The notes below the pieces were generated by a model that was not told the origin of the DNA, did not search any database, and was given only the letters and a program-made list of their open reading frames with translations. The translations under genes and the position numbers were made by a program. DNA of 64,000 nucleotides from positions 11,004-75,003 of the forward strand of contig SLRQ01000013.1 in the NCBI GenBank assembly GCA_007130885.1. Direction: 5' to 3'. Positions 9,941 to 58,587 of the stretch are shown in pieces (positions within the stretch are counted from its first letter, which is position 1; each line of letters starts with the position of its first letter). This stretch comes from Deltaproteobacteria bacterium (GTDB taxonomy: Bacteria; Myxococcota; Myxococcia; SLRQ01).

Positions 9941-10014
9941 AAGCCGATATCAGGCATAGCACACCTAAAGCCGGCTCGGTGACATCAATACCGGGCCTTG
10001 ACGGGAGGGTGATC

Positions 10015-11709: not shown

Positions 11710-12711
11710 TCAGTAGATCTCCGGCTTCGACTTTCGGGCCATCAGCTCCAAGACGGCTTCGGGAGCCGGCTTGTTCTCATACAGAATGCCGTGGACGGCA
11801 TCCGTGATGGGCAGCTCCACTCCCAGCTTGATTCCTAGATCGTGGGCGCTCTTGGTCGTCTTGACGCCTTCGGCCACGGTCCCCAGCTCCCCAAGAATCT
11901 CGTCGAGACGGCGGCCCTTTCCAAGCTCGAACCCCACGGTGCGATTGCGCGAAAGCCCGCCCGTACAGGTAAGGATCAGATCGCCCATGCCGGATAGTCC
12001 CATGAACGTCTGTGCGTGCGCGCCTTTTGCGAGGCCAAGTCTGGTCAGCTCGGCCAGGCCACGGGTTATGAGGGCCGCCCTCGTGTTGTGGCCCAATCCG
12101 AGACCGTCGATTATTCCCGCTCCGATGGCTATGACGTTCTTCAGGGCTCCGCCTATCTCAACGCCCATCACGTCCGTGGACGTGTAGACGCGGAAGTAGG
12201 GGGCAGACAGAAGGTGTTGCGCTCTTGCCGCCACCCTCGGCCAATAGGCCGCCACCGTGACGGCCGTGGGCTGCTTTTGTGCGACCTCCCGGGCGAACGA
12301 GGGGCCGGACACGTAAGCAAGGTAGGGGTGAAGCTTCTCCGGCAATACGTCTTCCAGGATTTCGGCGCAGGTCATCAGGCTCTCGTTCTCGATGCCTTTT
12401 GAAGCCGTTATCAGAGGCACGCCGTCGGAAAGGTACGGCAAGGCCTTGGACATCACCGGTCTTATCGCGGGCGTAGGTACGACCACGAGTATTACCTCGG
12501 CACCCAGCAACGCCGCTTCGATATCCGTGGTAGCCCTAATGCGCTCCGAGAGGGCGGCTCCCGGCAGATAACGAGAGTTCTCGTGCTTGGACTCGATTTG
12601 ATGTGCGACGTCCTCTTCGATGGTCCATATGGTGACCGATGCTCCCGTGTTGCCCAGCAAGTCTGCAAGCGCCGTTCCCCAAGAGCCTCCTCCAAGTACA
12701 GTTGCGTGCAT
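11710..12711 (-). CDS. gpsA: NAD(P)H-dependent glycerol-3-phosphate dehydrogenase
   Basis: N-terminal GGGSWGTALA Rossmann motif. Conserved GpsA core (AVKNVIAIGAG, TCTGGLSRNRTVGFELGKG). Convergent with the mutase gene. Confidence 0.9.
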   Translation of the reverse strand: MHATVLGGGSWGTALADLLGNTGASVTIWTIEEDVAHQIESKHENSRYLPGAALSERIRATTDIEAALLGAEVILVVVPTPAIRPVMSKALPYLSDGVPLITASKGIENESLMTCAEILEDVLPEKLHPYLAYVSGPSFAREVAQKQPTAVTVAAYWPRVAARAQHLLSAPYFRVYTSTDVMGVEIGGALKNVIAIGAGIIDGLGLGHNTRAALITRGLAELTRLGLAKGAHAQTFMGLSGMGDLILTCTGGLSRNRTVGFELGKGRRLDEILGELGTVAEGVKTTKSAHDLGIKLGVELPITDAVHGILYENKPAPEAVLELMARKSKPEIY

Positions 12712-15698: not shown

Positions 15699-16058
15699 CG
15701 GGGGACCATGGACATTGCTTTTTGAAATGGCCGGAACCATCGAAGTCGGCGGGAGACCACAATAATGGAAGTCAAGAACGCGTATCCACCGGACAATGCA
15801 AAAGCCGGCATTTATTTTTGACGGTAGAAATATTTTGAACGGCGATGAGATGAGAAGAATAGGTTTTTGCGTCTATCAGGTGGGGAAGGGATCCGCGGAC
15901 GCGGCGATAGGTCTAGAGCCTTGGAGCGGGTGATGTAGAGACGTGCTCGAGGCAAAGCGCGGCTGCAAGTTGGTGATTCCGCGGAGAAGATGGTTCGCGG
16001 ACGGCCTTGGCTTCTAAGACGTTGCGAAGGTGGTGTCAGGCGGCGTAATCTACGGATT

Positions 16059-19000
16059 ATGAACAGTTGTGGCTCCAAGCTCGTTGGTTGGACGGTGCTC
16101 ATGGCCGCATGGGCGGTTTCGGCATGCGGCACGTTGGAGCTGACGGGCATCGATCTTCGCATTCATTCCGAAGAGGCGGGGGAGATGGAGTGGATGGAAG
16201 TCGCCGTTTATGATTCCGGTGGAGAGATGATGCACTCTCCCGAGCGGCGTCCGGAGGGGGGGCGCCCCGTGAAGAGCACTGAAACGGTCTTGATTCTGTT
16301 GCCCGGAGAGCTTGATGGAGAGCTGGTTCTAGTCCACGTCATGGGCTTTTACGGGCAGCATGTGGTGGCTGAAGGCGCCGTCGAGGTGGTGGTTGAAGCG
16401 GGAGTGCTTCAAGAGGCGGAGGTAGAGCTGAACTTGCTCGGCTACTGCGAGACCGATGAGGATTGCGCCAAAGGCGAAGTTTGCTTGCCGGAGGGATGGT
16501 GTGCCTCCGGCTGCATGGTGGAGGACGTTTTTGCGGAGCCTGGGGAGCCAAGCCCCGACAACGAATGCTTGATTTGTAAGCCGGATGTCTCGACGCGCGA
16601 ATGGGTCCCCTCGGATGCCGGTACTTCGTGCGGTGACGGAAAGGTCTGCGATGGGGCGGGCAAGTGCGTCATGGATGATCCGGGGCGCGTGGCGGTGCTG
16701 GTCGAGGTGGGTGGGCTCGGCGGGGGGAAGGTGCACTCGGAGCCGGGAGTGATCGACTGCGGTAGTGTTTGTAGTGCCTTGGTCGAGATAGGCAGCACCC
16801 TGAGCTTGACTGCTGTTCCCGACGAGGAAAGCATGTTCTCGGAATGGCGGGGGGATGCCTGCGTGGAAAGTGAGTCGACGTGCACCTTGACCGTCGAGGA
16901 ACAGGTCGTGGTCACCGCCCGGTTCGATGTGAAGGTTCACGAGCTGGAGGTGAGCTTGGCGGGCACGGGTAGCGGCAATGTGGTCTCCACGGACGGGGTC
17001 ATTGACTGCGGTGGCGGCGACTGCAGCGCCCTGTATGAGCACGGCGAGACGGTGACTCTCGTAAAATCCGTACAACCGGGCAGCGAGTTTGTGGGATGGG
17101 AAGGGGCTTGCGAAGGGAGTGAAGATACGTGCGAGCTTTCCATCACGGAGGATACGCAAGTCATAGCCGAGTTCGATTTGCACCGGCACGAGCTCACAGT
17201 AGATGTTTTTGGAGGTGGGGAAGGGCACGTCCAGTCGGACGACGGCGCGATTGACTGCCACGCCGCCGGCGGGTCGTGCCGGGCCACGTATGGGCACGGT
17301 GATGAGGTGGTGCTTACGCGTTCGGTCGCGGAAGGCAGCGTTTTTGCCGGTTGGGGAGAGGCCTGTGACTCTTCCTCGGAGACGTGCAAGCTTACGATGA
17401 CGGGGGCGTTGGAGGTGACGGCGGAGATCGTAATGGAGGTGTTCGAGCTTGCGGTGACGGTTGTGGGAACCGGCTCGGGCACCGTGGAATCATCGGATGG
17501 AGCTATTCTTTGTGGAGGTGGGGACTCTGATTGCGTGGCCGAGTATGAGTTCGGGCAGGAGGTGTCCTTGACTAGAGAGAGTGGCTCGGGAAGTCGCTTC
17601 GCCGGTTGGGGCGGGGCGTGCGCGGGGTCGGATCGAAGCTGTGACTTCGTAATGAATGATGATCTAGTCGTGTTTGCGACCTTCGAGCTTCGAACTTATG
17701 AGCTCGACGTGAGCTGGACCGGCGATGGTGACGGTACGGTAAGGTCCGCGGATGGGGCAATCGAATGCGGGGTGGAAGGCTCTGATTGCTCCGCTATTTA
17801 CAGCCACGGTCAAACAGTGGTTCTTACCCCCGAGTCTGTTTCGAGCAGCCACTTCGAGGGATGGGGCGGAAGCTGCCAGGGGGACGCTTCGACCTGTGAG
17901 CTGACGATGACGGCTAATCGGAGTGCGAGTGCGCGATTCCAGCTCAACTCTTACACGTTATCAGTGACGGTGACAGGGAGCGGGGAGGGGACTGTAACCT
18001 CCACCGGAGGCACAATAGAGTGTGGTTCCGGGGGAACGAAATGCGACGCCGCGTATTTGCATGGGCAGATGGTGAACCTGACCGCCACCTGGGGAACCTA
18101 CAGCGAGCTTACGGCGTGGGGGGGGGCGTGCGCTCATGCGGAAGAATCTTCGTGCCTCCTGGAGGTGACCGGTACTACCGAGGTGGTGGCGGAGATCAAC
18201 TTGATAACCCATGAGATCCAGGTCGATACGCTTGGTAACGGCGCCGGAACTATCACGACTGCGGACCAGGACATCGATTGCGGCGATGGAAAAGAGAGCT
18301 GTGAGGCGAGCTATGAGCATGGCTCCATGGTTACGCTGCACGCCGAGGCCAGCGAAGGTAGCACGTTCGTGGGATGGAGCGGCGACTGCGCTCATGCCGG
18401 TATGGACGAAGAATGCGCGCTCGAAGTCACCGAGAGTAGAGATGCCGCGGCTGAGTTCACGCTCAACTCATACGTGTTGACGGTCGAGACGAGGGGGGAC
18501 GGCGAGGGCACGGTCTCTTCAACGCCAGAAGGCATCGACTGCGGGAACAAGTGCGAGGCCACTTACTTATATGGCCAAGTGGTTTCTCTGCAGCAGAGTT
18601 ACAGTGGCCATAACGAGTTCATCGGATGGGGAGGGGACTGCTCGGGCGACGATGATACCTGCGAGCTGCTCATTTCAGGAGATCATCTAGTGACTGCTCG
18701 GTTCGAGCCTCGAAGATATATGCTTTCGGTCAGCACCGTCGGCAACGGAGAGGGAACCGTCATGACGGATGATGGAGTGATCGATTGCGGGCACGAAAGT
18801 TGGAGCTGCTCGGTGCTCATCACATACGGAGAGACGGTGGTGCTGAACCAGTCCGCCGAGCCGAGCAGCTACTTTTCGAGCTGGTACGGCGACTGCGCAT
18901 CGGCGGGCGTTTCCTGTTTGGTACAGATGGAAGGACACAGGAGCGTCGATGCCGATTTCTCCTTGAAAAGCTATCCGCTGGAGGTCAGCAAGGAAGGGAG

Positions 19001-19691
19001 TGGTGGGGGTACGGTTATCTCCGAGCCCGGTGATATTCTGTGTGGTCTTTCATGCGAGGATGAGTTCGATCACTATACCGAGGTGACTCTGTCGGCGACG
19101 CCGGATGAGCACAGTGCATTCGTCGGGTGGTCAGGAGCCGGCTGCAGTGGTACCGGCTCGTGCATTGTTCCAATGACACAAGCTCGTAGTGTCATAGCAA
19201 GATTCGGGCGAAAGGGCAGAGTTCTTAGGGAGTACTGGCTGGGCATCTCCGGAACGGCGGTTTCGGACCTGACCAATCATTCGAATTTCCCCGACAACCC
19301 AAGCGGAGCTACTTTCCCGACGATTTTCGAGGGTCCCACCAACTGGACAAACCACTATGGCACGCGAATGCGAGGATATATTCATGCGCCATATACCGGA
19401 GATTATGTTTTCTGGATAGCGAGCGACGACAACAGCGAGCTTTGGCTCAGCACGGACCCCAACCCGGCCAACAAGGTGTTGATCGCTTACGTGCCTGTCT
19501 GGACCAATCCCAGGGAATGGAACAAGTTTTCTTCCCAGCAGTCGCAGCCCATTCACCTAAGGGCCGGTCAAACATATTACATCGAGGCATTGCATAAGGA
19601 ACACGAGGGCGGGGACAATATCGCTGTTGCTTGGCAGCCGCCCGGTGAAAGCCGGCAAGTCATTCCCGGCGCCTTCTTGTCACAATATTAA
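16059..19691 (+). CDS. giant surface lipoprotein: 13 tandem InlB-type B-repeat-like domains + C-terminal PA14 domain
   Basis: Lipobox signal MNSCGSKLVGWTVLMAAWAVSACG. About 13 copies of a ~78-aa unit with the pattern G.G.G.V.S..G.I.CG....C...Y.HG..V.L.A.P..GS.F.GW.G.C.G....C.L.M.....V.A.F. Terminal GYIHAPYTGDYVFWIASDDNSELWL...YYIEALHKEHEGGDNIAVAWQ is PA14-like. AT-richer promoter-like region 15700-16050. Confidence 0.8.
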   Translation: MNSCGSKLVGWTVLMAAWAVSACGTLELTGIDLRIHSEEAGEMEWMEVAVYDSGGEMMHSPERRPEGGRPVKSTETVLILLPGELDGELVLVHVMGFYGQHVVAEGAVEVVVEAGVLQEAEVELNLLGYCETDEDCAKGEVCLPEGWCASGCMVEDVFAEPGEPSPDNECLICKPDVSTREWVPSDAGTSCGDGKVCDGAGKCVMDDPGRVAVLVEVGGLGGGKVHSEPGVIDCGSVCSALVEIGSTLSLTAVPDEESMFSEWRGDACVESESTCTLTVEEQVVVTARFDVKVHELEVSLAGTGSGNVVSTDGVIDCGGGDCSALYEHGETVTLVKSVQPGSEFVGWEGACEGSEDTCELSITEDTQVIAEFDLHRHELTVDVFGGGEGHVQSDDGAIDCHAAGGSCRATYGHGDEVVLTRSVAEGSVFAGWGEACDSSSETCKLTMTGALEVTAEIVMEVFELAVTVVGTGSGTVESSDGAILCGGGDSDCVAEYEFGQEVSLTRESGSGSRFAGWGGACAGSDRSCDFVMNDDLVVFATFELRTYELDVSWTGDGDGTVRSADGAIECGVEGSDCSAIYSHGQTVVLTPESVSSSHFEGWGGSCQGDASTCELTMTANRSASARFQLNSYTLSVTVTGSGEGTVTSTGGTIECGSGGTKCDAAYLHGQMVNLTATWGTYSELTAWGGACAHAEESSCLLEVTGTTEVVAEINLITHEIQVDTLGNGAGTITTADQDIDCGDGKESCEASYEHGSMVTLHAEASEGSTFVGWSGDCAHAGMDEECALEVTESRDAAAEFTLNSYVLTVETRGDGEGTVSSTPEGIDCGNKCEATYLYGQVVSLQQSYSGHNEFIGWGGDCSGDDDTCELLISGDHLVTARFEPRRYMLSVSTVGNGEGTVMTDDGVIDCGHESWSCSVLITYGETVVLNQSAEPSSYFSSWYGDCASAGVSCLVQMEGHRSVDADFSLKSYPLEVSKEGSGGGTVISEPGDILCGLSCEDEFDHYTEVTLSATPDEHSAFVGWSGAGCSGTGSCIVPMTQARSVIARFGRKGRVLREYWLGISGTAVSDLTNHSNFPDNPSGATFPTIFEGPTNWTNHYGTRMRGYIHAPYTGDYVFWIASDDNSELWLSTDPNPANKVLIAYVPVWTNPREWNKFSSQQSQPIHLRAGQTYYIEALHKEHEGGDNIAVAWQPPGESRQVIPGAFLSQY
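16670..19200 (+). repeat. intragenic tandem array of ~13 units of ~235-240 bp encoding the B-repeat domains
   Basis: Periodicity visible in the protein translation. Units are divergent (about 30-50% aa identity). Confidence 0.7.
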
Positions 19692-19826
19692 TCCGCACAG
19701 TATGGTGCCTCGAGTTCATAGGTCATCCCAGCATACAGGAAGCTACTCGCAAGAGAGCATGCCGGCTCAGCACTTTCTCTTCGTTTCATCAATTAAAAAA
19801 GCAGTAATTGTACCGGAGGCATCAAG

Positions 19827-21434
19827 ATGAAGCCAGTAGGATACAGAATCATGTTTGTTTCTAGGGCGTGCCTTGCCTTGCTGATAGCCTATTCTTTGTC
19901 TTGTGGCGACGTGTCAGAAGTGTCGGATGAGAACGGTGATACCGTTGCAATGCCTGCCTTTTCGCCCTCATCTGGAACATACAATCAGCCAATTGCGGTA
20001 GAGATTACTACTGACACAGATGGAGCAAGAATCTATTACACTACAAATGGCTCGAACCCTTCGGAAGACAATGGAGACGAGTACGACGAAGCTATTGTTC
20101 TAGAAGGTGACGGACTAGAGGTGACCCTGAGAGCAATTGCAGTCAAGGAAGGCCTGCTTGACAGCGAGATAGCAGAGGCGACCTATATTTTCGAATATGA
20201 TACGGAGAATGGCGGAGTCGCTACGCCGGTTTTCACTCCAGCTCCGGGAATCTATGATGGGTCCATAGATGTGGAGATAAGCACTTCTACATCTGATGCG
20301 ATAATCCATTACACCATGGACGGTTCGAAACCATCCAAGACGACAGGGGAGGTGTATGATGGGCCAATCGAGCTCGAGGGTGATGGACTGGATGTGACGA
20401 TACGGGCGCTTGGAGTCAAGGAGGGCATGCTCGAGAGTGAGGTCGCCGAGGCAAGTTATGCAATCGAGTACGAGACAGTCGCCACGCCGGTTTTTGACCC
20501 GGAGCCAGGAGTATATGATGAGCCAATCAGCGTGGATATCAGCACGGCTACCGGAGGCGCGACGATATACTACACCATGGATGGTTCAGAGCCCTCCGAA
20601 GCCGAGGGTACGGTGTTCCTAGAGCCGATCATTCTAGACGGCGACATTTCAGAGGTGACGATTAGATCTCTAGCGATCAAGGAAGGAATGCGCGACAGCG
20701 AGATAGCATCGGCGACCTATGAGATCGATTACCATGATGAGTTCCAATTCCTGAAAGGCGTGTGGGCAACGAAAACCGTAGCCGTTGCGGACTCGGTTAC
20801 CATGGGCGTTAGCAGTCAACCCGTAACAACAGCTTACTCGCTCGTTCATATGAGCGTGGAGAAAGAGATTGCGGAGGCGCGTGCCGTTACCTGTCATATT
20901 GACGTTGATACGGACACGAATAGGGTTAAAATTTTCATCAAGGACAGCTATATCGATGCCTTGGATGAAATCGAGTATTTATATTCGATATCAGGAGATG
21001 AAGAAGGTTACACTCTGAGCATCGAGGACCATGTGCTGTTGACCGCCGTGGATCTTCAAGATCCATTGAACGATGAAATGCCTGATGATAAAAATGATCC
21101 GCGATTTTTCAATCAAGACGGCAGGCGGGGTCCGGGGATTACAATTGATGCCTGGGTAGACCCTGTTGTTGGGCAGGCCAGCGACGAGGAAATGAGCGTC
21201 GCCACGCGTCAATTTACGACGCAGCTCTTGGAGGTCAAAGGGGACGACCTCATAGTCGGGAGCTATGAGTGGGACGAGGACAGGATCGTTCTAGAGACAA
21301 CACATAGCATGTTGGACTGGGAGCAGCAGGTCACTCCCAGGCACGAGGATAGCTATACCAAGCTCGTGAAGGTAGATGATTCTTATGACTGTGAGAAGAT
21401 CCTGGCCGAGATAGCTGGACTCTTCGCCGACTAG
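19827..21434 (+). CDS. lipoprotein with 4 chitobiase/beta-hexosaminidase C-terminal-type (CHB_HEX_C-like) repeats + unassigned C-terminal domain
   Basis: Lipobox LIAYSLSCGD. Repeats of the form FSPSSGTYNQPIAVEITTDTDGARIYYTTNGSNPSE...EYDEAIVLEGDGLEVTLRAIAVKEGLLDSEIAEATY. RBS GGAGG upstream. Confidence 0.8.
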   Translation: MKPVGYRIMFVSRACLALLIAYSLSCGDVSEVSDENGDTVAMPAFSPSSGTYNQPIAVEITTDTDGARIYYTTNGSNPSEDNGDEYDEAIVLEGDGLEVTLRAIAVKEGLLDSEIAEATYIFEYDTENGGVATPVFTPAPGIYDGSIDVEISTSTSDAIIHYTMDGSKPSKTTGEVYDGPIELEGDGLDVTIRALGVKEGMLESEVAEASYAIEYETVATPVFDPEPGVYDEPISVDISTATGGATIYYTMDGSEPSEAEGTVFLEPIILDGDISEVTIRSLAIKEGMRDSEIASATYEIDYHDEFQFLKGVWATKTVAVADSVTMGVSSQPVTTAYSLVHMSVEKEIAEARAVTCHIDVDTDTNRVKIFIKDSYIDALDEIEYLYSISGDEEGYTLSIEDHVLLTAVDLQDPLNDEMPDDKNDPRFFNQDGRRGPGITIDAWVDPVVGQASDEEMSVATRQFTTQLLEVKGDDLIVGSYEWDEDRIVLETTHSMLDWEQQVTPRHEDSYTKLVKVDDSYDCEKILAEIAGLFAD

Positions 21435-21501
21435 ACCACATAAGTAAGATAGGGATACGAGCTACTTGGGATCGAATATTTGGCTCGTTAGAAGATTTTG
21501 C

Positions 21502-21945
21502 ATGAGAAAGGCAGCGGAGCTGAAAGAATTGCGGTTCAGACCGCATCACTTCCTCTGTACCCTGTGCCATCGGGGCAAAGGGTACTCACCGTCGTTCATC
21601 AGGAGCTACGCAAAGTTGATGAAGCGGCTGGGAAAGCCCGACACGGGTGACGAGGAGCCGATCCAGGTAGTCAGCGGGCCGGACATGATCTGCGATTTTT
21701 GCCCCAAGCTGCACGGCGAGGCGTGCGAGACGCAGGATGTGGTGGAAGCCTTGGACCGCGCGCACGCGGGAATACTCGGCCTCGAGGAGGGGCAGGTAAT
21801 CACCTGGGGGGAGGCCAAGCGACTTCTTGCAGAGCATATGACGCCGCGGGCTTTCGATGAGGCCTGCAAACCTTGTGGGTGGAAGCCGCGAGGGCTTTGC
21901 GAGAAGGTCCTTCAAGAGCTGAGGGAAGAACGAAAGGCAAGCTGA
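21502..21945 (+). CDS. DUF1284-family protein (RPHHxLC motif)
   Basis: ELRFRPHHFLCTLCHRGKGY and further Cys residues (CDFCP...C) match the DUF1284 signature as I recall it. Start chosen at ATG 21502. The track's 21466 is a TTG. Confidence 0.5.
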   Translation: MRKAAELKELRFRPHHFLCTLCHRGKGYSPSFIRSYAKLMKRLGKPDTGDEEPIQVVSGPDMICDFCPKLHGEACETQDVVEALDRAHAGILGLEEGQVITWGEAKRLLAEHMTPRAFDEACKPCGWKPRGLCEKVLQELREERKAS

Positions 21946-22006
21946 CGAGTCTCTATAGTCGGATTACCTTTCGTTCACCGAGCGGGACACCCTCGATTTC
22001 GATGGT

Positions 22007-22483
22007 TTATGTTTCAAACCAGAAACGAAAGCCGAAGCCGGATTGCAGCCCCACGTCTGGAATGTCGATTCCTCCGTCGGAGATAAATGCCAGTCGCGGG
22101 GCAATCTCCAGGAAGAGCTCCAGCCATTCAGCGGGAAATGCGTTCAAACCGATAGGCACCCGGCCTCCAAGGTCCAGGCGGTCGGGCAGAGACAGGTATA
22201 GGCCTGGACCTACATACACGTTTACGAAGCTGAAGAGGTTCTCGCGTATGAGAATCCAGTCGGCGGTCATGCCGAACTGAAACTCTTCCCGAGTAAGTCT
22301 CGCTCCGACCCCGAAGGTGATAGGCAGCTCCGGAGTCTTGACGCTGAGCATGGCGTCCGAGCCCGGAAGTCCGCCAAGGGGGCTCACCTCGAGGGAAAGC
22401 CCAACGCCCCACTCCTGCCCAAGCGCGGGTGTTGCGCTCGATAGCGCGGCTAGCAGACAAAAAATATAGAAACGACGCAGCAT
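22007..22483 (-). CDS. small outer-membrane beta-barrel protein (OmpW/OmpA-barrel-like)
   Basis: Signal peptide MLRRFYIFCLLAALSSATPALG. Alternating amphipathic strands. Ends in ...GFGFRFWFET with a terminal aromatic typical of OMP beta-barrels. Confidence 0.55.
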   Translation of the reverse strand: MLRRFYIFCLLAALSSATPALGQEWGVGLSLEVSPLGGLPGSDAMLSVKTPELPITFGVGARLTREEFQFGMTADWILIRENLFSFVNVYVGPGLYLSLPDRLDLGGRVPIGLNAFPAEWLELFLEIAPRLAFISDGGIDIPDVGLQSGFGFRFWFET

Positions 22484-22840
22484 TTCCACTCCACAAGGAA
22501 AACGGGATTCAGCTCCATCATACCGCAAGACCGGTATGCCGGCGAACAAAGCGTGGAGCGATCGCTTGGGGAACAATCTGAAGGCGGTTATCAGTGATAC
22601 GGTTCGGCTAGATGTGCCCCCCAAAAAGGAACTCGTACCGGGACTAGTTGGCGCACGCCGCCTCTACTCGCTCCGGCCTCCACTCGCCTGGGAACTGTTC
22701 GGCGGCGGATAGCCCTAGCCTCTCACCATCCAAGGGAATTCGAGCCGACCCGGTTTCTAGATAGGGGGTCCGTCAGGGCCTTGTCATATTGATGCTGAAC
22801 TGCTTTATTCGCAAAGCTAACCTTTCAAGGGGTGACGGAT

Positions 22841-25800
22841 ATGAAGAGGCGAAACCGAGGCTCTTGGCTTATTTCCTATTTGGGCGTTGCGGCGGCATTT
22901 CTCCTGGCAGCCGCGTGCGGAGAAAAAGACCCGGCCGATGAGCAGGTGGCCTCGCCGGTCTTCTCTCCTCCGGCGGGGACCTACGAGGAGCCCATCGATG
23001 TGGAGATCAGCACGGGGACCGAAGGGGCCACGATCTTCTACACCATGGACGGTTCAGAGCCGTCCGCGACGAATGGACAGGCGTACGACGGTCCCATCGC
23101 GCTGGCGGGGGACGGCCTGGAGGTAACCATAAAGGCTTTGGCGTTCAAGGAGGACATGCTCGATAGCGAGGTGGTCGAAGCGAGCTATACCCTCGAGTAC
23201 CCGGTGGAAGAAGAGAAAGTGGCCACGCCGAGCTTCTCTCCGCCGGCGGGCACGTACAATGAGCCCATAAGTGTGGAGATCAGCACCGAGACCCAGGGGG
23301 CCGCCATCTTCTACACGATCGATGGCTCCGAGCCGTCGGCTGACTCGGGAGAGGAGTACGACAGCCCGGTCGACATCAGTGACGGCCTGGAGCTGACCAT
23401 ACGGGCTCTGGCGGTCAAGGAGGGAATGCTCGACAGCGACGTCGCCGAGGCCGCCTATGCGGTCGAGATAGAGCTCGAGCAGGTGGCCGCGCCCGTCTTC
23501 TCTCCACCGCCGGGGACTTACCATGAAGATATGACCGTGGAGATAAGCACCGCCACAACTGGAGCATCGATCTATTACACGATGGACGGCTCCGACCCGA
23601 CGGCGGCCGATGGAGAGGAGTACGATAGCCCCATCGAGCTGGAGGGCGACGGGCTGGCGGTCACCATCAAGGCCATCGCGGTGAAGGATGAAATGGCGGA
23701 CAGCGAGGTCGCCGAAGCTGATTACGTCATCGAGTACCTGGAGACGGTCGAGAAGCCTACCTTCTCGCCGGCCGCCGGCACCTACTATGAGCCCATCGAC
23801 GTCGAGATCAGCACGGCCACCGATGGAGCGTCCATATACTACACCACCGACGGATCGGTCCCCTCGGCGGATGGTGGAGAGGAGTACGACGGCCCGATAA
23901 CGCTGGAGCAAAACGGTCTGGAACTGACCATAAAGGCAATAGCCGTGAAAGACGGCATGTATGACAGCGACATTGCCGAAGCGGTCTACCTCGTCGACTT
24001 CGAGACGGTCGCGGCGCCCGTCTTCACGCCGGCTCCCGGTACGTATCACGATCCGGTGGACGTCGAGATCACAACGGCCACCGATGGAGCCGTCATCTAC
24101 TTCACCACCGACGGCTCGGAGCCGTCTGTCGAAAACGGTACCGAGTACGTCGGTCCCATCACGCTCGACGAGTACGGGCTGCAGGTGACCATAAAGGCCC
24201 TGGCCTCGAAGGACGGCATGTACGACAGCAACGTGGTCCAGGGGGTCTATCTCGTCGACCATGAGACGGTCGCCGCGCCCACCTTCACGCCGGGCTCGGG
24301 GACATATTTCGAGCCGATCAACGTGGAGATCGAGACGGCCACCGAAGGAGCGACGATATATTTCACCTTGGACGACTCCGAGCCCTCGGCGGACAACGGA
24401 GACGAGTACGTCGATGCCATAGCGCTCGAGGACGACGGACTGGAGGTGACCATAAAGGCTATTGCGCTGAACCATGGGATGCACGACAGCGATGTGGTCT
24501 CGGCTGGGTACATTATGAACTTCACGCCCGATACGCCGTCAGTGGTCTATCCCACGCAGGGCTCCACGGTAAGAAGCCCGCTGGACGTATGGGGGACCGG
24601 CGTTGCGGGCAACACCATCGAAGCGACTTTGTTGCACGACGATGACGAGATCTCGCAAGAGACCGTCGATATCGAGCCGGACGGCTCGTTCGAGCTGACT
24701 CTCCACTACACCGACGTCGAGGGCGGGGCCGACCTTCGGCTGAACGTCGTGCAGATTGCCGGCGATTATGTCTCGGAGCCGGCCGTCATCAATCTGGTGG
24801 AGGACTCCATGCGGTTTTTGGCGGGCACCATCGAGCAGACCGGCGGCCCAAACGAGGGCGATGTGTACATCTGGCTCTACGAGGCCGAGGAGACAGGGAG
24901 CACGGTCGTCGAGGATCTTTTGGAGCCGATGAACACTTTCGCGATCGTAGGCCCGGAGCATGACTGGCTCGATGAGACTTCCTTTGCATTTAGCGTGACA
25001 GAGGGTCACTACGTCCTTCGGGTTTTCAGGGACGCGGGAGGTGGTGACGGTGGGACGCCCGACGGTTTGCCCAGTATTGGAGATGACGCCCAAAGCGTCG
25101 TTCTGGCGGTATCGGTCAGCGGGGAAGACGTTACCGATCTCGACCTAGAGCTCGTGGATACGAGTCATGCCCATAGGTACGCGGCACTGGAGGTTTTCTC
25201 CTCGAACGAGACCAGTGAGCCCGAACCTCCTTATTATGAGGACAATGGCGACTGGCTGCGGGGCGAAGGGCTTTGCCGCGGCTATCACATGCGGCTGGAG
25301 ACTCATCTCTGGCATGGAGACGAAAGCTTGTCGGAGCCGAGGGTGCGCCGTCCGGACGGATCCATGGTCACCATGCTCGATGACGGAGCCTGCGGTCCGG
25401 AGGTCGCCGACAATACAAGCAGCAGCTATAACCACTGGCTGGACGATGGTTTTTACTCCTTCGGGTGGCAGGATCCCGACGATAGCGATGCCGGCGTATA
25501 CACGTTCTTCTACGAAAACAGCGCCGAGGGCTTCTTTCACATCGAGGAGCGGGAGCTTGGCGAGGTAGTGAAGCTCACGCGGTCGATCCCTCTCACCTCT
25601 CCATCCGGCGCCGAGCCGAACACGGACTTGCAGCCTGAGCTTTCGTGGGAATCGCTTGGCGGCGATGTGAGCTACCATGTGTGCCTGCAAAAGAGCCACC
25701 AGTGGGACTGGAGTATCTGCGAGAGCACCGACGAGGCGTTCATTCAACTGCCCTTCGAAGATGATCTCGATGACGTTCAGGCCTATTGCGCCGATGTCAG

Positions 25801-26614
25801 TGCGACGAAGTCTTGCCCGTTGGGACATCGAATAGCCCAATCTGCCGGCGTTCGAAGCTGCTTTGTGACATGTACCGACCCGCAAAACGACTGCGTTACC
25901 ATCTCCGGCGACATCATCGACCGGAGCGGCATGGAGAGCCGCTACCTGATAGAGGCTTTCAGCGATCAGTACGATGACATCCAGTCTACGCTGGTTCTGC
26001 CGGCCGGCACGGAGTCATATCAACTGGCCGTCTTGAAGCATGAGCCGGACGACGACGACGTTGAAGTGATCGCCGCCTTGGATGTCGACGGCAGCGGCGA
26101 CTTTCGCTCGCGGGCGAATGAGGACCACGAGATATTCGTCTGGGTGGAGGCCGATGAAGACCGGCACGGAGTAGACCTGGTCTTCAACCCGATGGTGCGG
26201 GTGATCTATCCTCTTGACGGGGAAGGCGAGGTCGGTGACCAGCCGACCTTCGAGTGGGAGGCATACGAGCAGACCTACCTCGAGCAAGCGGGTGAGGCGC
26301 TTCCGCTGGCCGAGTGGATGTACCTGTTGCTGGTTACTCGAGACAATGGAGGGATGGGCCCCGATGTCGTATGGGCGCTGGACGAAAGCGTGACCAGCTT
26401 CGATATGACCGACCCGCCGGCGGATGGCTTTGACCTAAGGCCCCTTAGTCCCATGGATGGACCTTCCGCCGAGGACCTAAGTGAGAGCAACGAATGGTTC
26501 TGGGAGGTCGCGGTTTTCGACTGCCACTACGAGGACGAGGAGTGCCTGGAGGAAATGATGGGTACCTTTTCCTTCTTCGCCATAAGCGCCGAGGCCGCCT
26601 TCACAACGGACTGA
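22841..26614 (+). CDS. large lipoprotein: 6 CHB_HEX_C-like repeats + ~700-aa Cys-containing C-terminal region of unassigned fold
   Basis: Lipobox LLAAACGE. Six ~86-aa repeats (FSPPAGTY.EPI.VEISTAT.GA.IYYT.DGS.PS...G.EYD.PI.L...GL..TIKA.A.K.GM.DS...). The C-terminal region (from PDTPSVVYPTQGS...) is paralogous to the next gene. Confidence 0.8.
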   Translation: MKRRNRGSWLISYLGVAAAFLLAAACGEKDPADEQVASPVFSPPAGTYEEPIDVEISTGTEGATIFYTMDGSEPSATNGQAYDGPIALAGDGLEVTIKALAFKEDMLDSEVVEASYTLEYPVEEEKVATPSFSPPAGTYNEPISVEISTETQGAAIFYTIDGSEPSADSGEEYDSPVDISDGLELTIRALAVKEGMLDSDVAEAAYAVEIELEQVAAPVFSPPPGTYHEDMTVEISTATTGASIYYTMDGSDPTAADGEEYDSPIELEGDGLAVTIKAIAVKDEMADSEVAEADYVIEYLETVEKPTFSPAAGTYYEPIDVEISTATDGASIYYTTDGSVPSADGGEEYDGPITLEQNGLELTIKAIAVKDGMYDSDIAEAVYLVDFETVAAPVFTPAPGTYHDPVDVEITTATDGAVIYFTTDGSEPSVENGTEYVGPITLDEYGLQVTIKALASKDGMYDSNVVQGVYLVDHETVAAPTFTPGSGTYFEPINVEIETATEGATIYFTLDDSEPSADNGDEYVDAIALEDDGLEVTIKAIALNHGMHDSDVVSAGYIMNFTPDTPSVVYPTQGSTVRSPLDVWGTGVAGNTIEATLLHDDDEISQETVDIEPDGSFELTLHYTDVEGGADLRLNVVQIAGDYVSEPAVINLVEDSMRFLAGTIEQTGGPNEGDVYIWLYEAEETGSTVVEDLLEPMNTFAIVGPEHDWLDETSFAFSVTEGHYVLRVFRDAGGGDGGTPDGLPSIGDDAQSVVLAVSVSGEDVTDLDLELVDTSHAHRYAALEVFSSNETSEPEPPYYEDNGDWLRGEGLCRGYHMRLETHLWHGDESLSEPRVRRPDGSMVTMLDDGACGPEVADNTSSSYNHWLDDGFYSFGWQDPDDSDAGVYTFFYENSAEGFFHIEERELGEVVKLTRSIPLTSPSGAEPNTDLQPELSWESLGGDVSYHVCLQKSHQWDWSICESTDEAFIQLPFEDDLDDVQAYCADVSATKSCPLGHRIAQSAGVRSCFVTCTDPQNDCVTISGDIIDRSGMESRYLIEAFSDQYDDIQSTLVLPAGTESYQLAVLKHEPDDDDVEVIAALDVDGSGDFRSRANEDHEIFVWVEADEDRHGVDLVFNPMVRVIYPLDGEGEVGDQPTFEWEAYEQTYLEQAGEALPLAEWMYLLLVTRDNGGMGPDVVWALDESVTSFDMTDPPADGFDLRPLSPMDGPSAEDLSESNEWFWEVAVFDCHYEDEECLEEMMGTFSFFAISAEAAFTTD
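22960..24530 (+). repeat. intragenic tandem array of six ~258-bp units encoding CHB_HEX_C-like domains
   Basis: Six consecutive ~86-aa repeats in the translation with 50-70% identity between units. Confidence 0.75.
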
Positions 26615-26701
26615 CCTAATCGCGGAGCAGAAACGCAACACGGTCTCGGGCGGTACTCTTTCGCGGTCATATGACGGTGAAGGATACCTCCTATCTTTGG
26701 T

Positions 26702-26731
26702 AGACTAGCTTTCACTTGCGAGACTAGCTTT
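26702..26731 (+). promoter_or_regulatory. 11-bp direct repeat AGACTAGCTTT x2 (19-bp register) about 15 nt upstream of the 26746 start codon
   Basis: Exact direct repeat read from the sequence. A regulatory function is inferred from its position only. Confidence 0.2.
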
Positions 26732-26745
26732 TCCGGAGGGCTGGA

Positions 26746-29172
26746 ATGAGACCGATGAGCCGAGGGGCACGAGTTGCGACCTATATCTGCATTGTCTTTT
26801 TCGCGTCTACTTGTAGAGGTAAGGACTCATCCGAGGAAAGGGTGGCTATGCCGACCTTTTCGCCTCCGGCGGGTGCTTACGACAAGCCTATTGCCGTCGA
26901 GATCAGTACAGAGACCGAGGGAGTCACGATCTTCTACACGATCGATGGTTCGGAGCCTTCCGCCAAACACGGAAAAAAGTACGAAGGTTCCGTCATCCTC
27001 GATGAAGATGGGCTGGAGGCCACCGTCAAGGCTATAGCGCTGAAGCAGGGTATTCCCGACAGCCATGTGGCGGAGGCCGGCTACACTTTGGATCTTACAC
27101 CCCGAACTCCGTCAGTAGAATTTCCCGAGCAAGGCTCCAAGGTAGCAAGCCCTTTCACGATACGAGGCACGGCCGCTGCCGGCAACAGCATCGAGGCTAC
27201 ACTGGTTTACCGCTATGACGCGATCATCAGAGAGAGGGTGGAAGTAAAAGCGGATGGCACGTTTGAGCTGACGGTCAACTATACCCAGGTTGATGCTGGA
27301 GCCGACCTTGTGCTGAATGTCGTGCAGGCCAGCGGTGATTATGTATCAGAGCCGGCTATCATAAATTTGGTTGGTGACGTGACATGGGTGCTCGGTGGCA
27401 GTGTTGAGCAAACGAGTGGCCCGATCCGAGGTGATGTGCACATTTGGCTTTACGAGGCCGGGCAGGCGGGGAGCACAGTGCGGGAGCTTTCAGAGCCAAT
27501 AAGTAGTCTGAGACTCGATGGACCGGAAAATTCATGGGTAAAGGAGAAGCCGTTCGAGTTTAGAGTGCCAAAAGGACAGTATGTACTTCGATCTTTTCGC
27601 GATGCTGGGGCCAGTCTGGATAGCAGGACACCGGATGGGCTTCCTACCTTGAGATCGGATGCCCAGAGCGAGATGCGGGCGGTAACAGTGGGCGATAGAG
27701 ACGTTGCCGATGTTCACCTTGATTTGATATGTACGCGTGACGCAGATATGTATCACTCGTTCGAGGTATTCACTTCAAACGAAAGCTGTGAGCCCGAGCC
27801 GCCATGGTATAATGAAAATGGTGACTGGGTACGAGGGGAAGGGCTGTGCCGCGGCTACCACATGCGGTTGGAGACTAGTCGCAATACCAAATCAGACGAT
27901 CTGTCAAAGCCTAAGGTGCGTCTACCGGACGGCACGATAGTAGCTTTGCTCGATGATGGAGCCTGCGGCCCGGAGGTCGCTGATAATACTAGCGGCAGCT
28001 ATAACCGCACGCGTGGTGATGGCGCGTACTCGTATGGTTGGCCGGATCCCGACGAGAGCGACGTCGGCGCATATACGTTCTTCTACGAAAACAGCGCCGA
28101 GGGCTTCTTCCACATCGAGGAGCGACAGTTGAATGAGGTGGAGAGGATGCCGGGATTGATCCCGCTAACCTCTCCAACAGGTGCCAAGCCTAACACCGAC
28201 CTTCAACCTAAGCTTGAATGGGAGCCGCTTGGTGATGGTGTGCGGTACCGTGTGTGTTTGCAGAAGAGCCAGCAATCTAATTGGCAGATCTGCGAGGTAT
28301 CCGAGAAACCGTATATTCAATTGCCCTTCGAAGATGATCTGGATGATGCGCAAGCGTATTGCGCTACGATAAGTGCGGTGAGGTTGTGCCCCTTGGGGCG
28401 TCGTCTGGCCGCAACCCAAGGTGGTGTTCGAAGCTGCTTTGTGACGTGCAGCGATCCGGAAAGCGATTGCATGACAGTATCCGGTGACATCATCGATCAC
28501 ACGAGTATGGATAGCCGCTATTTGATAGAAGTAAGTAGCCTGCAGTATGGCAGCCTCCAGTCGACCGTTGTGCTGCCCCCAGACGCGGAGTCATATCGAG
28601 CAGCCGTCCTTAGGCACGATGACAAAGGTCTAAATGTTAGGGCTACATGGGATACAGATGGTAGTGGCTCATCGCGGACTACGGCAAACGAGCAGTTTGT
28701 TCAGTTTGTTAGAGTTGAGCCCCACCATTTAGAAGGCATCGATATCAGGTTTGCTTCACTGATACAGGCATCATTTCCGCGCGAAGGAAAGGATCAGGTC
28801 GGCGATCAACCTACCTTCAAGTGGGAGGGGTACGATCAGACCTACTTTGAAGCGACAGGTCAGGAGCTTCCGTTGGATGACTGGATGTATGTTCTGACGG
28901 CTTCCCAAAACATGGCTGCAGGCTTCGACATCATCTGGAGCTTGGATAAAAACGTCACCAGCTTCGATATGACCAGTCCGCCCGAGGATAGTCTTGATGT
29001 TCAAGCTCTGTTGCGTGATTCTTCGGCCGAAGACCTAACCGTCGGTAGTGATTGGCAGTGGCGACTGAGGGTTTTTGACTGCCACTTCCAGGACATGGCG
29101 TGTCTACACAACAGGAACGAGCGGGACTCTGTTTTCGCTGATAGCGGCTACATTGGTTTCACCACCGACTGA
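26746..29172 (+). CDS. lipoprotein paralog: 1 CHB_HEX_C-like repeat + the same ~700-aa C-terminal region
   Basis: Signal/lipobox FFASTCRG. Collinear similarity to the 22841 gene across the C-terminal 700 aa (e.g. GLCRGYHMRLET, TFFYENSAEGFFHIEER shared). Identical DNA stretches (ttcttctacgaaaacagcgccgagggcttctt at ~25506 and ~28081). RBS GGAGGG upstream. Confidence 0.8.
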   Translation: MRPMSRGARVATYICIVFFASTCRGKDSSEERVAMPTFSPPAGAYDKPIAVEISTETEGVTIFYTIDGSEPSAKHGKKYEGSVILDEDGLEATVKAIALKQGIPDSHVAEAGYTLDLTPRTPSVEFPEQGSKVASPFTIRGTAAAGNSIEATLVYRYDAIIRERVEVKADGTFELTVNYTQVDAGADLVLNVVQASGDYVSEPAIINLVGDVTWVLGGSVEQTSGPIRGDVHIWLYEAGQAGSTVRELSEPISSLRLDGPENSWVKEKPFEFRVPKGQYVLRSFRDAGASLDSRTPDGLPTLRSDAQSEMRAVTVGDRDVADVHLDLICTRDADMYHSFEVFTSNESCEPEPPWYNENGDWVRGEGLCRGYHMRLETSRNTKSDDLSKPKVRLPDGTIVALLDDGACGPEVADNTSGSYNRTRGDGAYSYGWPDPDESDVGAYTFFYENSAEGFFHIEERQLNEVERMPGLIPLTSPTGAKPNTDLQPKLEWEPLGDGVRYRVCLQKSQQSNWQICEVSEKPYIQLPFEDDLDDAQAYCATISAVRLCPLGRRLAATQGGVRSCFVTCSDPESDCMTVSGDIIDHTSMDSRYLIEVSSLQYGSLQSTVVLPPDAESYRAAVLRHDDKGLNVRATWDTDGSGSSRTTANEQFVQFVRVEPHHLEGIDIRFASLIQASFPREGKDQVGDQPTFKWEGYDQTYFEATGQELPLDDWMYVLTASQNMAAGFDIIWSLDKNVTSFDMTSPPEDSLDVQALLRDSSAEDLTVGSDWQWRLRVFDCHFQDMACLHNRNERDSVFADSGYIGFTTD

Positions 29173-29402
29173 CCTTGTCGGCTAGTCGACGAAGCCGGGC
29201 CATGTAGCCGCGGTGTCGAAAAGTATTGGCACCGCGCGACTCGCGCATAATAGGAATCGCCGGTGGAGCTGTGGGGTTATCTGGACTCCACAGAGGCTTT
29301 ACGGCAATATTTCTCGGCGTTTAGGCCAAGCGCATCAAATGGCGCGGTCGTTGTCGTTGTGATCACTGCCTTCGAGGTTCTCGAAGTCGACCGGAGGAGA
29401 CG

Positions 29403-30680
29403 ATGTCCGTCGGTAGCAGCACAAGGAGAAAGCAGGAGCAGCCGGATTCGCGGGAAGGTCGCCCGAAGCACGTGGAAGCCGAGCCCGGCGGTGTTGGTGT
29501 TTCGCCTCGCGTTCCGCTAGTCGCGGTAATCGTGCTGGCCGTCATCGGCATAGGGGTGATGGCTCAGCTTACGCATACCCACTGGGGTGTGTCATCGGAT
29601 CCCGACTTCGCCAGCTTCTGTCCCGCCATGGGAGCGGCGGGTGTCGATTGCGACGATGTCGCTCGCAGCGAGTACTCCGAACTCTTTGGGATCCCAATCT
29701 CCTTCTGGGGGCTTCTCGTCTACCTCGGAATCATTGGTGTCGCCGCGTGGACGCTTCGTTCCTTCAGGGCGAAAGCAGGCTACCCCGGCGCGGGCTTGGG
29801 GCTGCTTAGCGTTGCCGCCGTCGGCTCGATCATCACCAGCGCTGCGCTGGGCTACATCTCCCACGTGCTCATCGAGGCGTACTGTAGCTGGTGCACGGTG
29901 GGATATGTACTCAACCTCTGCATATCCGCTGCTGTCTTCACGGGCCTTTGGAAGCTGCGCCTGAACCCCGCCGAAGCTTTGAAGCGCGATTTGGGCTTCT
30001 TCCTTCAGAGGCCGGCGATGTCGGCGTCGTTCTGTGGAGGCGGTCTGGCCATCGCGGTCGCAACGCTTCTGCTTTACCCCACTCCCAGCCCCGTCGAGGA
30101 TGCAAGCGAGGACGCTGGAGCCGAGGTGGTCGTGGGCGATGAAATGCCGAACCCGGTGTGGGAAGAGGCGCCCTTCAAAGGACCGGCGGATGCTCCGGTG
30201 ACCATAGTCGAGTTCACCGACTACGAATGCCCCATTTGCAAACGTTCTCACGCGCATCTCTCCAGTATTCTCGAGCCATACGAGGGACAGTACCGGATAA
30301 TGCATCGCCACTTCCCTCTCGATCAGGCATGCAATCCCGCAATTCCAAGGCCCTACAATCAGCACTCGTGTCGCGCTTCTCGATTCACCTTTTGCGCGGG
30401 CGAGCAAGACAAGTTCTGGGAGCTGAACAGGCTGGTGTTCGGGAGCAGGCAGCCTCTCGAGGAAGAGCACCTGCGCAGGTTAGCGGAACGGGTGGGTTGC
30501 GACATGGATGCTCTGGACGAATGCCTTGCCGGCGACCGGCCGGATGAGCACCTGCGGCGTGACATACAAGACGGAATCGATCTAGAGATCAGGGGAACAC
30601 CGACGTTCTTCATAAACGGGCAACGAGTAGTGGGGCTGCCCCAGCCAGCGGTGCTAAAAAAGTTTTTCGAAGAGGAGTAG
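29403..30680 (+). CDS. VKOR (vitamin K epoxide reductase-like) membrane domain fused to a periplasmic DsbA/thioredoxin-like domain
   Basis: Polytopic N-terminus with loop Cys pair CPAMGAAGVDC and active-site CSWC in a TM helix (IEAYCSWCTVGY). C-terminal Trx-fold with FTDYECPICKRSH CxxC motif. Confidence 0.75.
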   Translation: MSVGSSTRRKQEQPDSREGRPKHVEAEPGGVGVSPRVPLVAVIVLAVIGIGVMAQLTHTHWGVSSDPDFASFCPAMGAAGVDCDDVARSEYSELFGIPISFWGLLVYLGIIGVAAWTLRSFRAKAGYPGAGLGLLSVAAVGSIITSAALGYISHVLIEAYCSWCTVGYVLNLCISAAVFTGLWKLRLNPAEALKRDLGFFLQRPAMSASFCGGGLAIAVATLLLYPTPSPVEDASEDAGAEVVVGDEMPNPVWEEAPFKGPADAPVTIVEFTDYECPICKRSHAHLSSILEPYEGQYRIMHRHFPLDQACNPAIPRPYNQHSCRASRFTFCAGEQDKFWELNRLVFGSRQPLEEEHLRRLAERVGCDMDALDECLAGDRPDEHLRRDIQDGIDLEIRGTPTFFINGQRVVGLPQPAVLKKFFEEE

Positions 30681-30735
30681 TTGGCAGCATTCGTACTGAT
30701 ACTGCGTATGTAAACAGCCGGCAGGAGGACCGCCT

Positions 30736-31302
30736 TTGAGTCTTGAACTTGAAAAGGGAAGAACTGGAGCTTTAGTCATCAGCGTAGCGGCTCTCGGTTT
30801 GCTGTTTGTGGCCGCCGGCTGCACTCGCCCGGCGGAGACGGAGGTCGCTCAGGCATCGGAGCCTTGCGCCGAGGACGAGGTCAGGTGTAACGCCGAATGT
30901 GCGAAGCTCGATGTCTCCATAGAGCACTGCGGCAAGTGCGGGAGAAGGTGCTTTCAGAGGCAGGAGTGTCAGGAGGGAGTTTGTCGAGGTCTAGGTGTCG
31001 TATCGGCGCGGGATCTCGTAAGCCAACTCGACGACAAGGACTTCCTTCTCATCAACGTGCGCTACCCCCCCGTGGGCGTCATACCGGGTACCGACGCTAC
31101 CGTGCCTCATGACAGGCTCGACAAGCTGAAGGATGTCATCGGCCCAGACCCGGACACCAGGATCGTCTTGTACTGTGGGACCGCACAGCGCGTTATGACT
31201 CCCTTGCGCACGTTGCAGGAGGCGGGGTACCGGTCCATCGCATACCTTCACGGCGGCGTGACCGCGTGGCGCATGGCCGGTCTTCCCGTGGAAGACAACT
31301 GA
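30736..31302 (+). CDS. lipoprotein with rhodanese-like sulfurtransferase domain
   Basis: Lipobox LFVAAGCT. Cys-rich linker. Rhodanese active-site loop IVLYCGTAQR. TTG start at 30736 with GGAGGA 6 nt upstream. Confidence 0.65.
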   Translation: MSLELEKGRTGALVISVAALGLLFVAAGCTRPAETEVAQASEPCAEDEVRCNAECAKLDVSIEHCGKCGRRCFQRQECQEGVCRGLGVVSARDLVSQLDDKDFLLINVRYPPVGVIPGTDATVPHDRLDKLKDVIGPDPDTRIVLYCGTAQRVMTPLRTLQEAGYRSIAYLHGGVTAWRMAGLPVEDN

Positions 31303-48979: not shown

Positions 48980-49123
48980 TGGATTGCTACAGCAGTTTGT
49001 GGGGAGCCGGTCTTGATTCGTGGACTCATTGGAATCGGAGTAGGGTATTCGACTCGTTCGGCGCCTCGATGTTTGTTCCCCCGCGCCTACTAACCTAGAA
49101 TGTGTAAGATCTCTGGAGTGCTC

Positions 49124-58132: not shown

Positions 58133-58587
58133 ACCGGCGGGTACCTGCGAAGCAACGGACCACCTGGCTGGCGTGTCCTTGGTAGAGGCTACATGCGACT
58201 CCAAGACTACGTCATCGGATATTTGGTCGCTAGAGAAGTGACTAATCCTGAGTACCGGGGCGGATGTGTTTTCAGGTAGTTAGCGGGATAAGGTCGAGCC
58301 ATGCCAGGTCTCTCGACCCTTGGCGGCCTTGCCATGGAGAACCCTTTTCGTGACAAGCGGGTTGAAGGTTCCGCAACATGAGGACAAACTCCTATGTCAC
58401 TAGTAGTTGCGGAAAAGGGGGGTGCCGTGTGCGGTCGATACCACTTTAGATGTTTGGACGCGCGCGGCGAGGCTACCGGGCCGCTCGAGTTAGTGGGTAT
58501 CGATACGTGCGCTTACGACACCGGCTGTAGCATCGTTCCGTCCATCCGGATTGCCCGCATTATCGCGTGAGGCTTGTGAGGACCGTT

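Follow-up and report, generated by a model that had tools for sequence, protein, structure and literature searches.

Two putative lipoproteins of a Myxococcota bacterium share a predicted six-sandwich body behind one or six chitobiase-type repeats

Bacterial surface proteins composed of immunoglobulin-like (Ig) and fibronectin type III-like (Fn3) sandwich domains are already known as a general kind. The multi-Ig/Fn3 adhesins, including Bap, LapA/Lap and the RTX adhesins (e.g. MpAFP region II), are giant proteins with many near-identical tandem repeats, and either leave the cell by type I secretion or are fixed to its wall. The CHB_HEX_C_1 and Fn3_assoc domains are, according to their Pfam descriptions, Ig-like accessory modules best known at the C-termini of chitobiases and beta-hexosaminidases, and are also found in other secreted proteins. 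Chains of ~100-amino-acid (aa) beta-sandwiches are likewise present in alpha-2-macroglobulin (A2M), complement C3-C5, TEP and CD109. Here we describe three genes in a 64,000-nucleotide stretch of DNA from a Myxococcota bacterium (contig SLRQ01000013.1, positions 11,004 to 75,003, forward strand; hereafter the window), two of which encode a C-terminal core of ~690 aa that is of the Ig/Fn3 sandwich kind but falls in no curated family tested. Like the multi-Ig/Fn3 adhesins, the proteins carrying this core are secreted all-beta proteins of acidic composition with many Asp-Gly loops. In contrast to those adhesins, they have a predicted lipoprotein signal and, behind it, six different domains whose order does not vary.

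An initial annotation of the window identified three paralogous lipoprotein genes at 19827, 22841 and 26746. All three are open reading frames (ORFs) on the plus strand whose boundaries match public gene calls on identical contigs (each entry below rests on the ORF, Pfam and the public gene call):

Gene 1, 19827..21434, plus strand: 535 aa; signal peptide with non-canonical lipobox YSLSC/G, three CHB_HEX_C_1 repeats, orphan C-terminal domain.
Gene 2, 22841..26614, plus strand: 1257 aa from ATG; lipoprotein signal LLAAAC/G, six CHB_HEX_C_1 repeats, six-domain core.
Gene 3, 26746..29172, plus strand: 808 aa; signal peptide FASTC/R, one CHB_HEX_C_1 repeat, six-domain core.

An alternative GTG at 22832 is also open for the gene 2 ORF. 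In public copies of the locus, identity to the window is 99.99-100%; these copies are one ENA metagenome contig and the NCBI contigs SKUP01000133 and SKJR01000036 from metagenome-assembled genomes (MAGs; GCA_007129935.1 and GCA_007121905.1). The description of the products as lipoproteins is plausible for gene 2, whose lipobox, read by eye, fits the pattern [LVI][ASTVI][GAS]C, but the corresponding segments of genes 1 and 3 deviate from this pattern.

Genes 2 and 3 were proposed to share a collinear C-terminal region of ~700 aa with no known family, and both parts of this proposal hold. BLASTP aligns the two products with 445 identities in 785 positions (57%). Within the ~690-aa core, the identity is 58% at the amino acid level and 66% at the nucleotide level, compared with the ~50% first reported. 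The module in gene 2 is located as follows:

Gene 2 core module, 24524..26611, plus strand: aa 562-1257, equivalent to profile positions 1-698; collinear with the gene 3 core.

The blocks GLCRGYHMRLET and FFYENSAEGFFHIEER are found in both genes, as is the terminal sequence ...VFDCH...FTTD. Eleven Cys residues are kept between the two cores, which agrees with the conserved Cys described previously, but 11-13 Cys per 691 residues does not make the region especially Cys-rich. No Pfam or NCBIfam match above threshold was found in the cores of genes 2 and 3 or of 54 relatives described below, and so the confident hit to a well-known Pfam family that would have refuted the proposal did not appear; a sub-threshold Ig-like signal is present at the start of the core.

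The core is not restricted to this locus. A HMMER profile seeded by genes 2 and 3 was used to scan 1.84 billion cluster representatives. It retrieved 95 proteins with E<=1e-3, of which 59 reach E<=1e-30. The latter are mostly 750-950 aa in length and mostly cover profile positions ~2-675, such that about 60 representatives match end to end. These relatives are 20-33% identical to gene 3, and tblastn alignments at nine loci reveal 26-32% identity across ~600-700 aa. Most relatives have an N-terminal signal peptide plus a lipobox-type Cys, ..(A/S)AC(G/S/D), often followed by Asp-rich or Gly-rich linkers, and their core is preceded by 0-3 additional Ig domains (Gmad2/Big_6) or by low-complexity linkers. 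Where source names are given, they read "hypothetical protein" or "fibronectin type 3 domain-containing". The HMMER hits indicate that the family is usually present in single copy.

Membership of genes 2 and 3 in this family is evident from a collinear profile match across all six domains (D1-D6), from both family-wide Cys pairs, and from the signature motifs, which occur in the window genes with small changes (LRSFRD/LRVFRD, LLDDGACG). A scan of species-representative genomes with the pattern GTYYLRAFR, taken from a six-sequence alignment, located four loci, all in Myxococcota MAGs (labelled "Deltaproteobacteria bacterium", Polyangia, Myxococcales and Myxococcia). Pattern scans of genome and metagenome contigs based on an alignment of only the two paralogues found none, as the peptides chosen were lineage-specific. 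A word-indexed protein search with the core returned only the query and also missed the 57%-identical paralogue, and hence is uninformative on absence. Judged from the productive searches, the core is a rare, unnamed family found mainly in uncultured Myxococcota.

An AlphaFold model based on a 63-sequence family alignment has a mean predicted local distance difference test (pLDDT) value of 94.2 and a predicted template-modelling (pTM) score of 0.86, and consists of nearly all beta strands. With the two paralogues only, the pLDDT is 39, indicating that the signal comes from covariation within the family. Although the region had been viewed as one novel domain of ~700 aa, the AlphaFold and hhalign results instead resolve it into six beta-sandwich domains with internal duplication. 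The bounds of these domains were drawn from the secondary-structure pattern of the model and are given in gene 3 core numbering:

D1, 27097..27378, plus strand: core aa 1-94; bacterial Ig-like domain, placed from the AlphaFold strands.
D2, 27379..27741, plus strand: aa 95-215; beta-sandwich with motif G.Y.LRAFRD...PDG.PT..D.Q; homologous to D5 by profile comparison.
D3, 27742..28146, plus strand: aa 216-350; family signature sandwich with a Cys251-Cys290 pair.
D4, 28147..28461, plus strand: aa 351-455; Fn3-like sandwich with six of seven lineage-specific Cys (387, 399, 422, 431, 447, 451).
D5, 28462..28764, plus strand: aa 456-556; second D2-type sandwich with a D(V/T)DGSG loop; contains, near its beginning, the seventh lineage-specific Cys (458).
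D6, 28765..29169, plus strand: aa 557-691; Fn3-like sandwich with helical inserts, a Cys662/Cys669 pair and the terminal strand ...FTTD.

The assignment of D1 agrees with Gmad2 and Big_6 matches that are sub-threshold in gene 3 and significant in 14 and 11 relatives, respectively, and with weak PDB-sequence profile matches to the Ig domains of Bap, Lap and RTX adhesins (E 5e-4 to 4e-3). The same profile search gives weak matches to Fn3con and an Fn3-like protein (E 0.004) at profile positions 456-523, which correspond to D4 by an approximate offset, and the Pfam fn3 family matches one relative with E 0.014. Nothing beyond these weak Ig and Fn3 matches was found when the core was compared with PDB sequences in this manner. 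Comparison of D2 with D5 by hhalign gives a probability of 93.9% (E 1.5e-7), and that of D4 with D6 gives 61% (E 8e-5). On the basis of these alignments, D2 is homologous to D5 and D4 is probably homologous to D6, and therefore the body would have arisen partly by internal duplication.

The D2 and D5 loops (RAFRD..G...PDG and D.DGSGD) are ones that we take to resemble the Asp/Asn-Gly loop of DUF2141 (PF09912). Sub-threshold matches to this family were observed in four of the 54 relatives (best E 0.0014), whereas neither the window genes nor ten D2 and D5 segments scanned on their own gave any. All matches fall under the curated threshold, and so DUF2141 serves as a lead rather than as an assignment of D2 and D5.

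A Foldseek search of the model against the PDB returned complement C5/C3, A2ML1, TEP1, CD109, receptors of the gp130/LEPR/OSMR type and titin, with E values down to 1.4e-11, but with TM-scores of only 0.06-0.23 and root-mean-square deviations (rmsd) of 21-60 A. As we read the model, this result is what a long series of sandwiches would give and does not point to a common architecture. Bacterial alpha-2-macroglobulins are also lipoproteins, and this fact, together with complement C5/C3, A2ML1, TEP1 and CD109 being the top Foldseek matches, would be expected if the core were a short bacterial array of A2M- or complement-like macroglobulin (MG) domains that acts as a lipoprotein protease trap. 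We regard this identity as extremely improbable. For these matches the TM-scores are 0.06-0.15 with rmsd of ~30 A, such that the serial sandwich pattern alone is matched, and cytokine receptors and titin score as well. The CxEQ thioester motif that characterises the A2M and complement proteins is found in none of the 63 family members, and neither the window genes nor the 54 relatives have A2M or MG Pfam matches. Moreover, A2M is more than twice as long as the core, which lacks both the bait and the thioester domain. The A2M candidate was rejected on these grounds.

D3 is the most conserved of the six domains across the family and is 69% identical between the two paralogues. Its motifs are G.GLC.G, LLDDG.CG, DN..SY(D/N), DG.YS.G, G.YTFFY and IH.E. 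This conservation, and the fact that D3 matches no known family and so leaves room for a new activity, are compatible with the proposal that the core acts, most likely through D3, as an extracellular enzyme or metal-dependent catalytic domain of a new type. Family-wide polar residues in D3, including H339 and, in most members, D343, which occupy alternate positions on one strand, also point in this direction. We nevertheless consider an enzyme to be distinctly unlikely. The model is composed entirely of beta-sandwiches with no recognisable catalytic fold or motif, and near-invariant positions across the family are mainly structural (mostly G, P, W, Y, C and D/N, with many conserved Asp/Asn-Gly loops). 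In addition, both window paralogues carry R in place of D343 and N in place of D303, yet purifying selection persists. Searches of Pfam, NCBIfam and the PDB revealed no catalytic family for the window genes or the 54 relatives, and thus the earlier suggestion that the region is possibly enzymatic gains no positive evidence.

The repeats that precede the core are ~87-91 aa in length and match Pfam CHB_HEX_C_1 (PF13290; gathering threshold 22 bits) and Fn3_assoc (PF13287; 23 bits). PF13290/PF13287 scores are 162.6/132.1 bits for gene 1 (three stretches), 357.1/280.3 for gene 2 (six) and 54.4/44.7 for gene 3 (one), and the repeats are thus genuine members of these families, with scores far over threshold. 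Pfam, direct-repeat analysis and tblastn with one repeat agree that the window contains exactly ten copies, distributed 3+6+1. The initial annotation was correct for genes 2 and 3, but had counted four copies in gene 1 rather than three. The arrays are positioned as follows:

Gene 1 repeat array, 19944..20729, plus strand: three CHB_HEX_C_1/Fn3_assoc repeats starting at aa 40, 131 and 218.
Gene 2 repeat array, 22946..24523, plus strand: six CHB_HEX_C_1/Fn3_assoc repeats with mutual aa identity of 52-69%.
Gene 3 repeat, 26842..27096, plus strand: a single CHB_HEX_C_1 repeat.

Pairwise, the ten repeats exhibit 46-69% protein identity and 56-75% DNA identity, with no more than 20 identical bases in a run. 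The single repeat of gene 3 is nearest to repeat 1 of gene 2 (63% aa identity) and not to the adjacent repeat 6 (55%), which suggests that the number of repeats was changed internally after the duplication that produced genes 2 and 3. CHB_HEX_C_1 is absent from all 54 core relatives examined by Pfam scan. Unlike the proteins in which these domains are best known, the three products have no catalytic domain; the repeats sit before the six-domain body in genes 2 and 3, or before an orphan domain in gene 1, and Pfam and NCBIfam reveal no glycoside hydrolase family (e.g. GH20 chitobiases) in any of the three proteins.

The paralogy of gene 1 with the other two genes is limited to the repeats:

Gene 1 C-terminal region, 20727..21431, plus strand: 235 aa, unrelated to genes 2 and 3.

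This tail has no Pfam or PHROG match, and BLASTP of gene 1 vs gene 3 detects no similarity outside the repeats. A word-indexed protein search with the tail was empty, but the same search also missed the protein of gene 1 itself. As far as these tools can see, the tail is a true orphan. Genes 1 and 2 are not adjacent, as a DUF1284 gene and an opposite-strand ORF are located between them.

Stretches of identical DNA of about 32 nucleotides in genes 2 and 3 had been interpreted as a sign of ongoing, patchy gene conversion. There is indeed one such run between the two genes:

Longest identical DNA run, 28075..28109 (partner 25502-25536), plus strand: 35 nucleotides, encoding TFFYENSAEGFF.

The occurrence of this run in genes that are 66% identical, and a tandem same-strand layout that would permit exchange, are what ongoing homogenisation by conversion would predict. 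However, the next-longest runs are only 20, 19 and 18 nucleotides. TFFYENSAEGFF is an invariant peptide encoded by mostly two-fold-degenerate, strongly biased codons, and when synonymous-identity states were shuffled among amino-acid-identical codons, an equally long run arose in 16% of trials (p~0.16). Nei-Gojobori estimates for the core give a nonsynonymous rate (dN) of 0.30 and a synonymous rate (dS) of 1.52 (dN/dS 0.20). Values of dS for individual domains are 0.87-2.4 where estimable, with D5 saturated and not estimable, and thus no domain with an estimate has a low dS. Also, the repeats share at most 20 identical nucleotides in a run. Ongoing conversion is therefore a very unlikely explanation for the identical stretches. 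Judged by these substitution rates, genes 2 and 3 arose by a tandem duplication long ago and have been under purifying selection.

Only four Cys residues are conserved family-wide, namely C251/C290 in D3 (60 of 63 sequences) and C662/C669 in D6 (57 of 63), and both window genes have all four. Another seven Cys common to genes 2 and 3 (core 387, 399, 422, 431, 447, 451 and 458) are unique to these two proteins. These coincide with the loss of family-conserved Asp residues (D431, D436, D438 and D451) in the region of ~28255-28470 in gene 3 and in the matching part of gene 2. Of the 63 sequences, 59 have D451, 28 have D431, and at least 80% have D436 and likewise D438. These observations make it possible that a Ca2+-type site at the D4/D5 junction was swapped for disulfides in this lineage. 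The odd number of lineage-specific Cys fits no explanation that we have put forward. A gene for a disulfide-forming enzyme lies directly downstream of gene 3:

VKOR-DsbA fusion, 29403..30680, plus strand: 425 aa, disulfide-forming enzyme (Pfam VKOR, DSBA and Thioredoxin_4).

This gene is followed by one whose 188-aa product combines a rhodanese domain with a Stig1-like segment rich in Cys (the two genes together span 29403-31302). From their domain content, these genes are a predicted small disulfide- and sulfur-handling pair beside Cys-bearing secreted proteins, and we infer a functional link between VKOR-DsbA and the extra Cys of genes 2 and 3. A more elaborate proposal is that the body, and D3 especially, is a new ligand-recognition or metal-dependent catalytic module of Myxococcota-like bacteria, which in this lineage was re-engineered for a carbonate-rich, calcium-poor saline habitat by replacement of the putative Ca2+-site Asp residues with seven Cys serviced by VKOR-DsbA. 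We consider this proposal speculative and rather improbable. The accession series of the two MAGs that carry the locus may derive from the sediment of soda lakes. If true, the module could be, for example, a surface receptor for the capture of prey cells or polymers.

Taken as a whole, we cautiously favor the reading, to which we give slightly better than an even chance, that genes 2 and 3 encode lipid-anchored repeat-stalk proteins with a non-catalytic binding or structural body of six sandwiches. The products would be secreted and attached to the membrane by an N-terminal lipid. Their constant part would be an all-beta body of ~600-690 residues, in which the Ig-like D1 is followed by D2, D3 and D4 as one unit and by D5 and D6 as another, the latter echoing D2 and D4. 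Between anchor and body is a putative spacer that varies among relatives and that here comprises one or six CHB_HEX_C_1 repeats. These repeats could act as a stalk, such that the same body is held at two distances from the membrane. The high pTM value suggests that the relative positions of the domains are fixed, and the domains probably pack as one rigid body, perhaps stabilised by Ca2+ and/or disulfides, rather than as beads on a string. The body would then serve as a cell-envelope binding or structural module with adhesin- or receptor-like ligand capture, for which D3 is the likely ligand-facing domain.

Several points weigh against this reading. Genes 1 and 3 have non-canonical lipoboxes, and both lipidation and cell location are predictions. 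Rigidity is deduced from a single quantity, the pTM. D3 contains a conserved polar cluster (N228, E229, D286, D287, N297, S301, Y302, D308 and H339), which is a candidate metal or active site. Finally, no ligand, partner or conserved neighbour was found, and the nine relatives' loci share nothing with the window. VKOR-DsbA, PA14 and the gene 1 tail were sought as family neighbours at these nine loci, and none is common to them. As far as examined, the nine loci also share nothing among themselves, although large secreted repeat proteins (PA14, FG-GAP, DUF4215) recur nearby. At one relative's locus, a PA14 protein follows a family member (L006:10656-11873), and a DUF6290/ParE toxin-antitoxin pair (L006:7408-7913) is located just upstream of family member P0006 on two independent contigs.

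The lack of conserved neighbours and the variation in stalk length would also be expected if the proteins had only a structural task in the envelope, for instance as spacers or surface-layer elements, and bound no specific ligand. The architecture evidence from AlphaFold and Foldseek suits this alternative as well as it suits the favored reading. We hold the purely structural role to be unlikely, though deserving of serious consideration. The fixed order of six domains and the highly conserved signature domain across relatives that are only ~25-30% identical suggest a specific interaction surface, and the family is rare and usually single-copy, unlike components of the abundant, lattice-forming type.

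Other parts of the window provide context for the lipid-anchored stalk proteins that we favor. The net charge per 100 aa is -7 to -17 for secreted proteins (for example those at 15990-29172, 44332-47676 and 58567-63390), and near -1.5 to -3 for cytoplasmic enzymes (6962-12711). This contrast between strongly acidic secreted proteins and the cytoplasmic enzymes suggests a saline external medium and a salt-out cytoplasm, and we also count it in favor of our reading of genes 2 and 3. The GC content is 0.53-0.56 at 18000-22000 and 26000-30000, compared with 0.60-0.64 elsewhere, and these dips, which span genes 1 and 3, may reflect either a composition rich in Asp, Glu, Thr and Ile or a foreign origin. 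Upstream of gene 1, the region 15990-19691, with an unusually high GC skew (0.27), encodes a 1233-aa secreted protein in which at least seven divergent InlB B-repeats (Flg_new_2) are followed by a PA14 domain at the C-terminus. Three other very large secreted proteins are a Beta_propel protein of 1114 aa (44332-47676), an S41 peptidase of 1076 aa with a PDZ domain and ~590 residues outside the matched S41 domain (49100-52330), and a LamG/Big_1 protein of 1607 aa (58567-63390); neither the core module nor the CHB_HEX_C_1 repeat was found in these three. At 6962-11709, a 992-aa fusion of HMGL-like, PYC_OADA and carboxyltransferase domains adjoins methylmalonyl-CoA mutase. By its domain content, the fusion resembles the transcarboxylase 5S and 12S subunits joined in one chain, and its position beside the mutase suggests a module of the propionate/methylmalonyl-CoA pathway.

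These results do not challenge current understanding, and they remove two over-interpretations of the locus, the first being that the region is one giant novel domain and the second that gene conversion is active. The core nonetheless differs from surface proteins already known in its distinct, conserved six-domain arrangement and in a signature domain that matches no tested family. The fusion of the same body to one vs six copies of a chitobiase-type repeat would constitute a natural experiment in stalk length, and the possible Asp-to-Cys swap beside a VKOR-DsbA gene offers a small, testable hypothesis on the adaptation of extracellular proteins. The previously unnamed family can be folded confidently, is found in about 60 of 1.84 billion representatives, and is a candidate for curation, either as a new family or as a domain of unknown function (DUF). 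As such, it adds to the large, unannotated repertoire of secreted proteins in uncultured Myxococcota.

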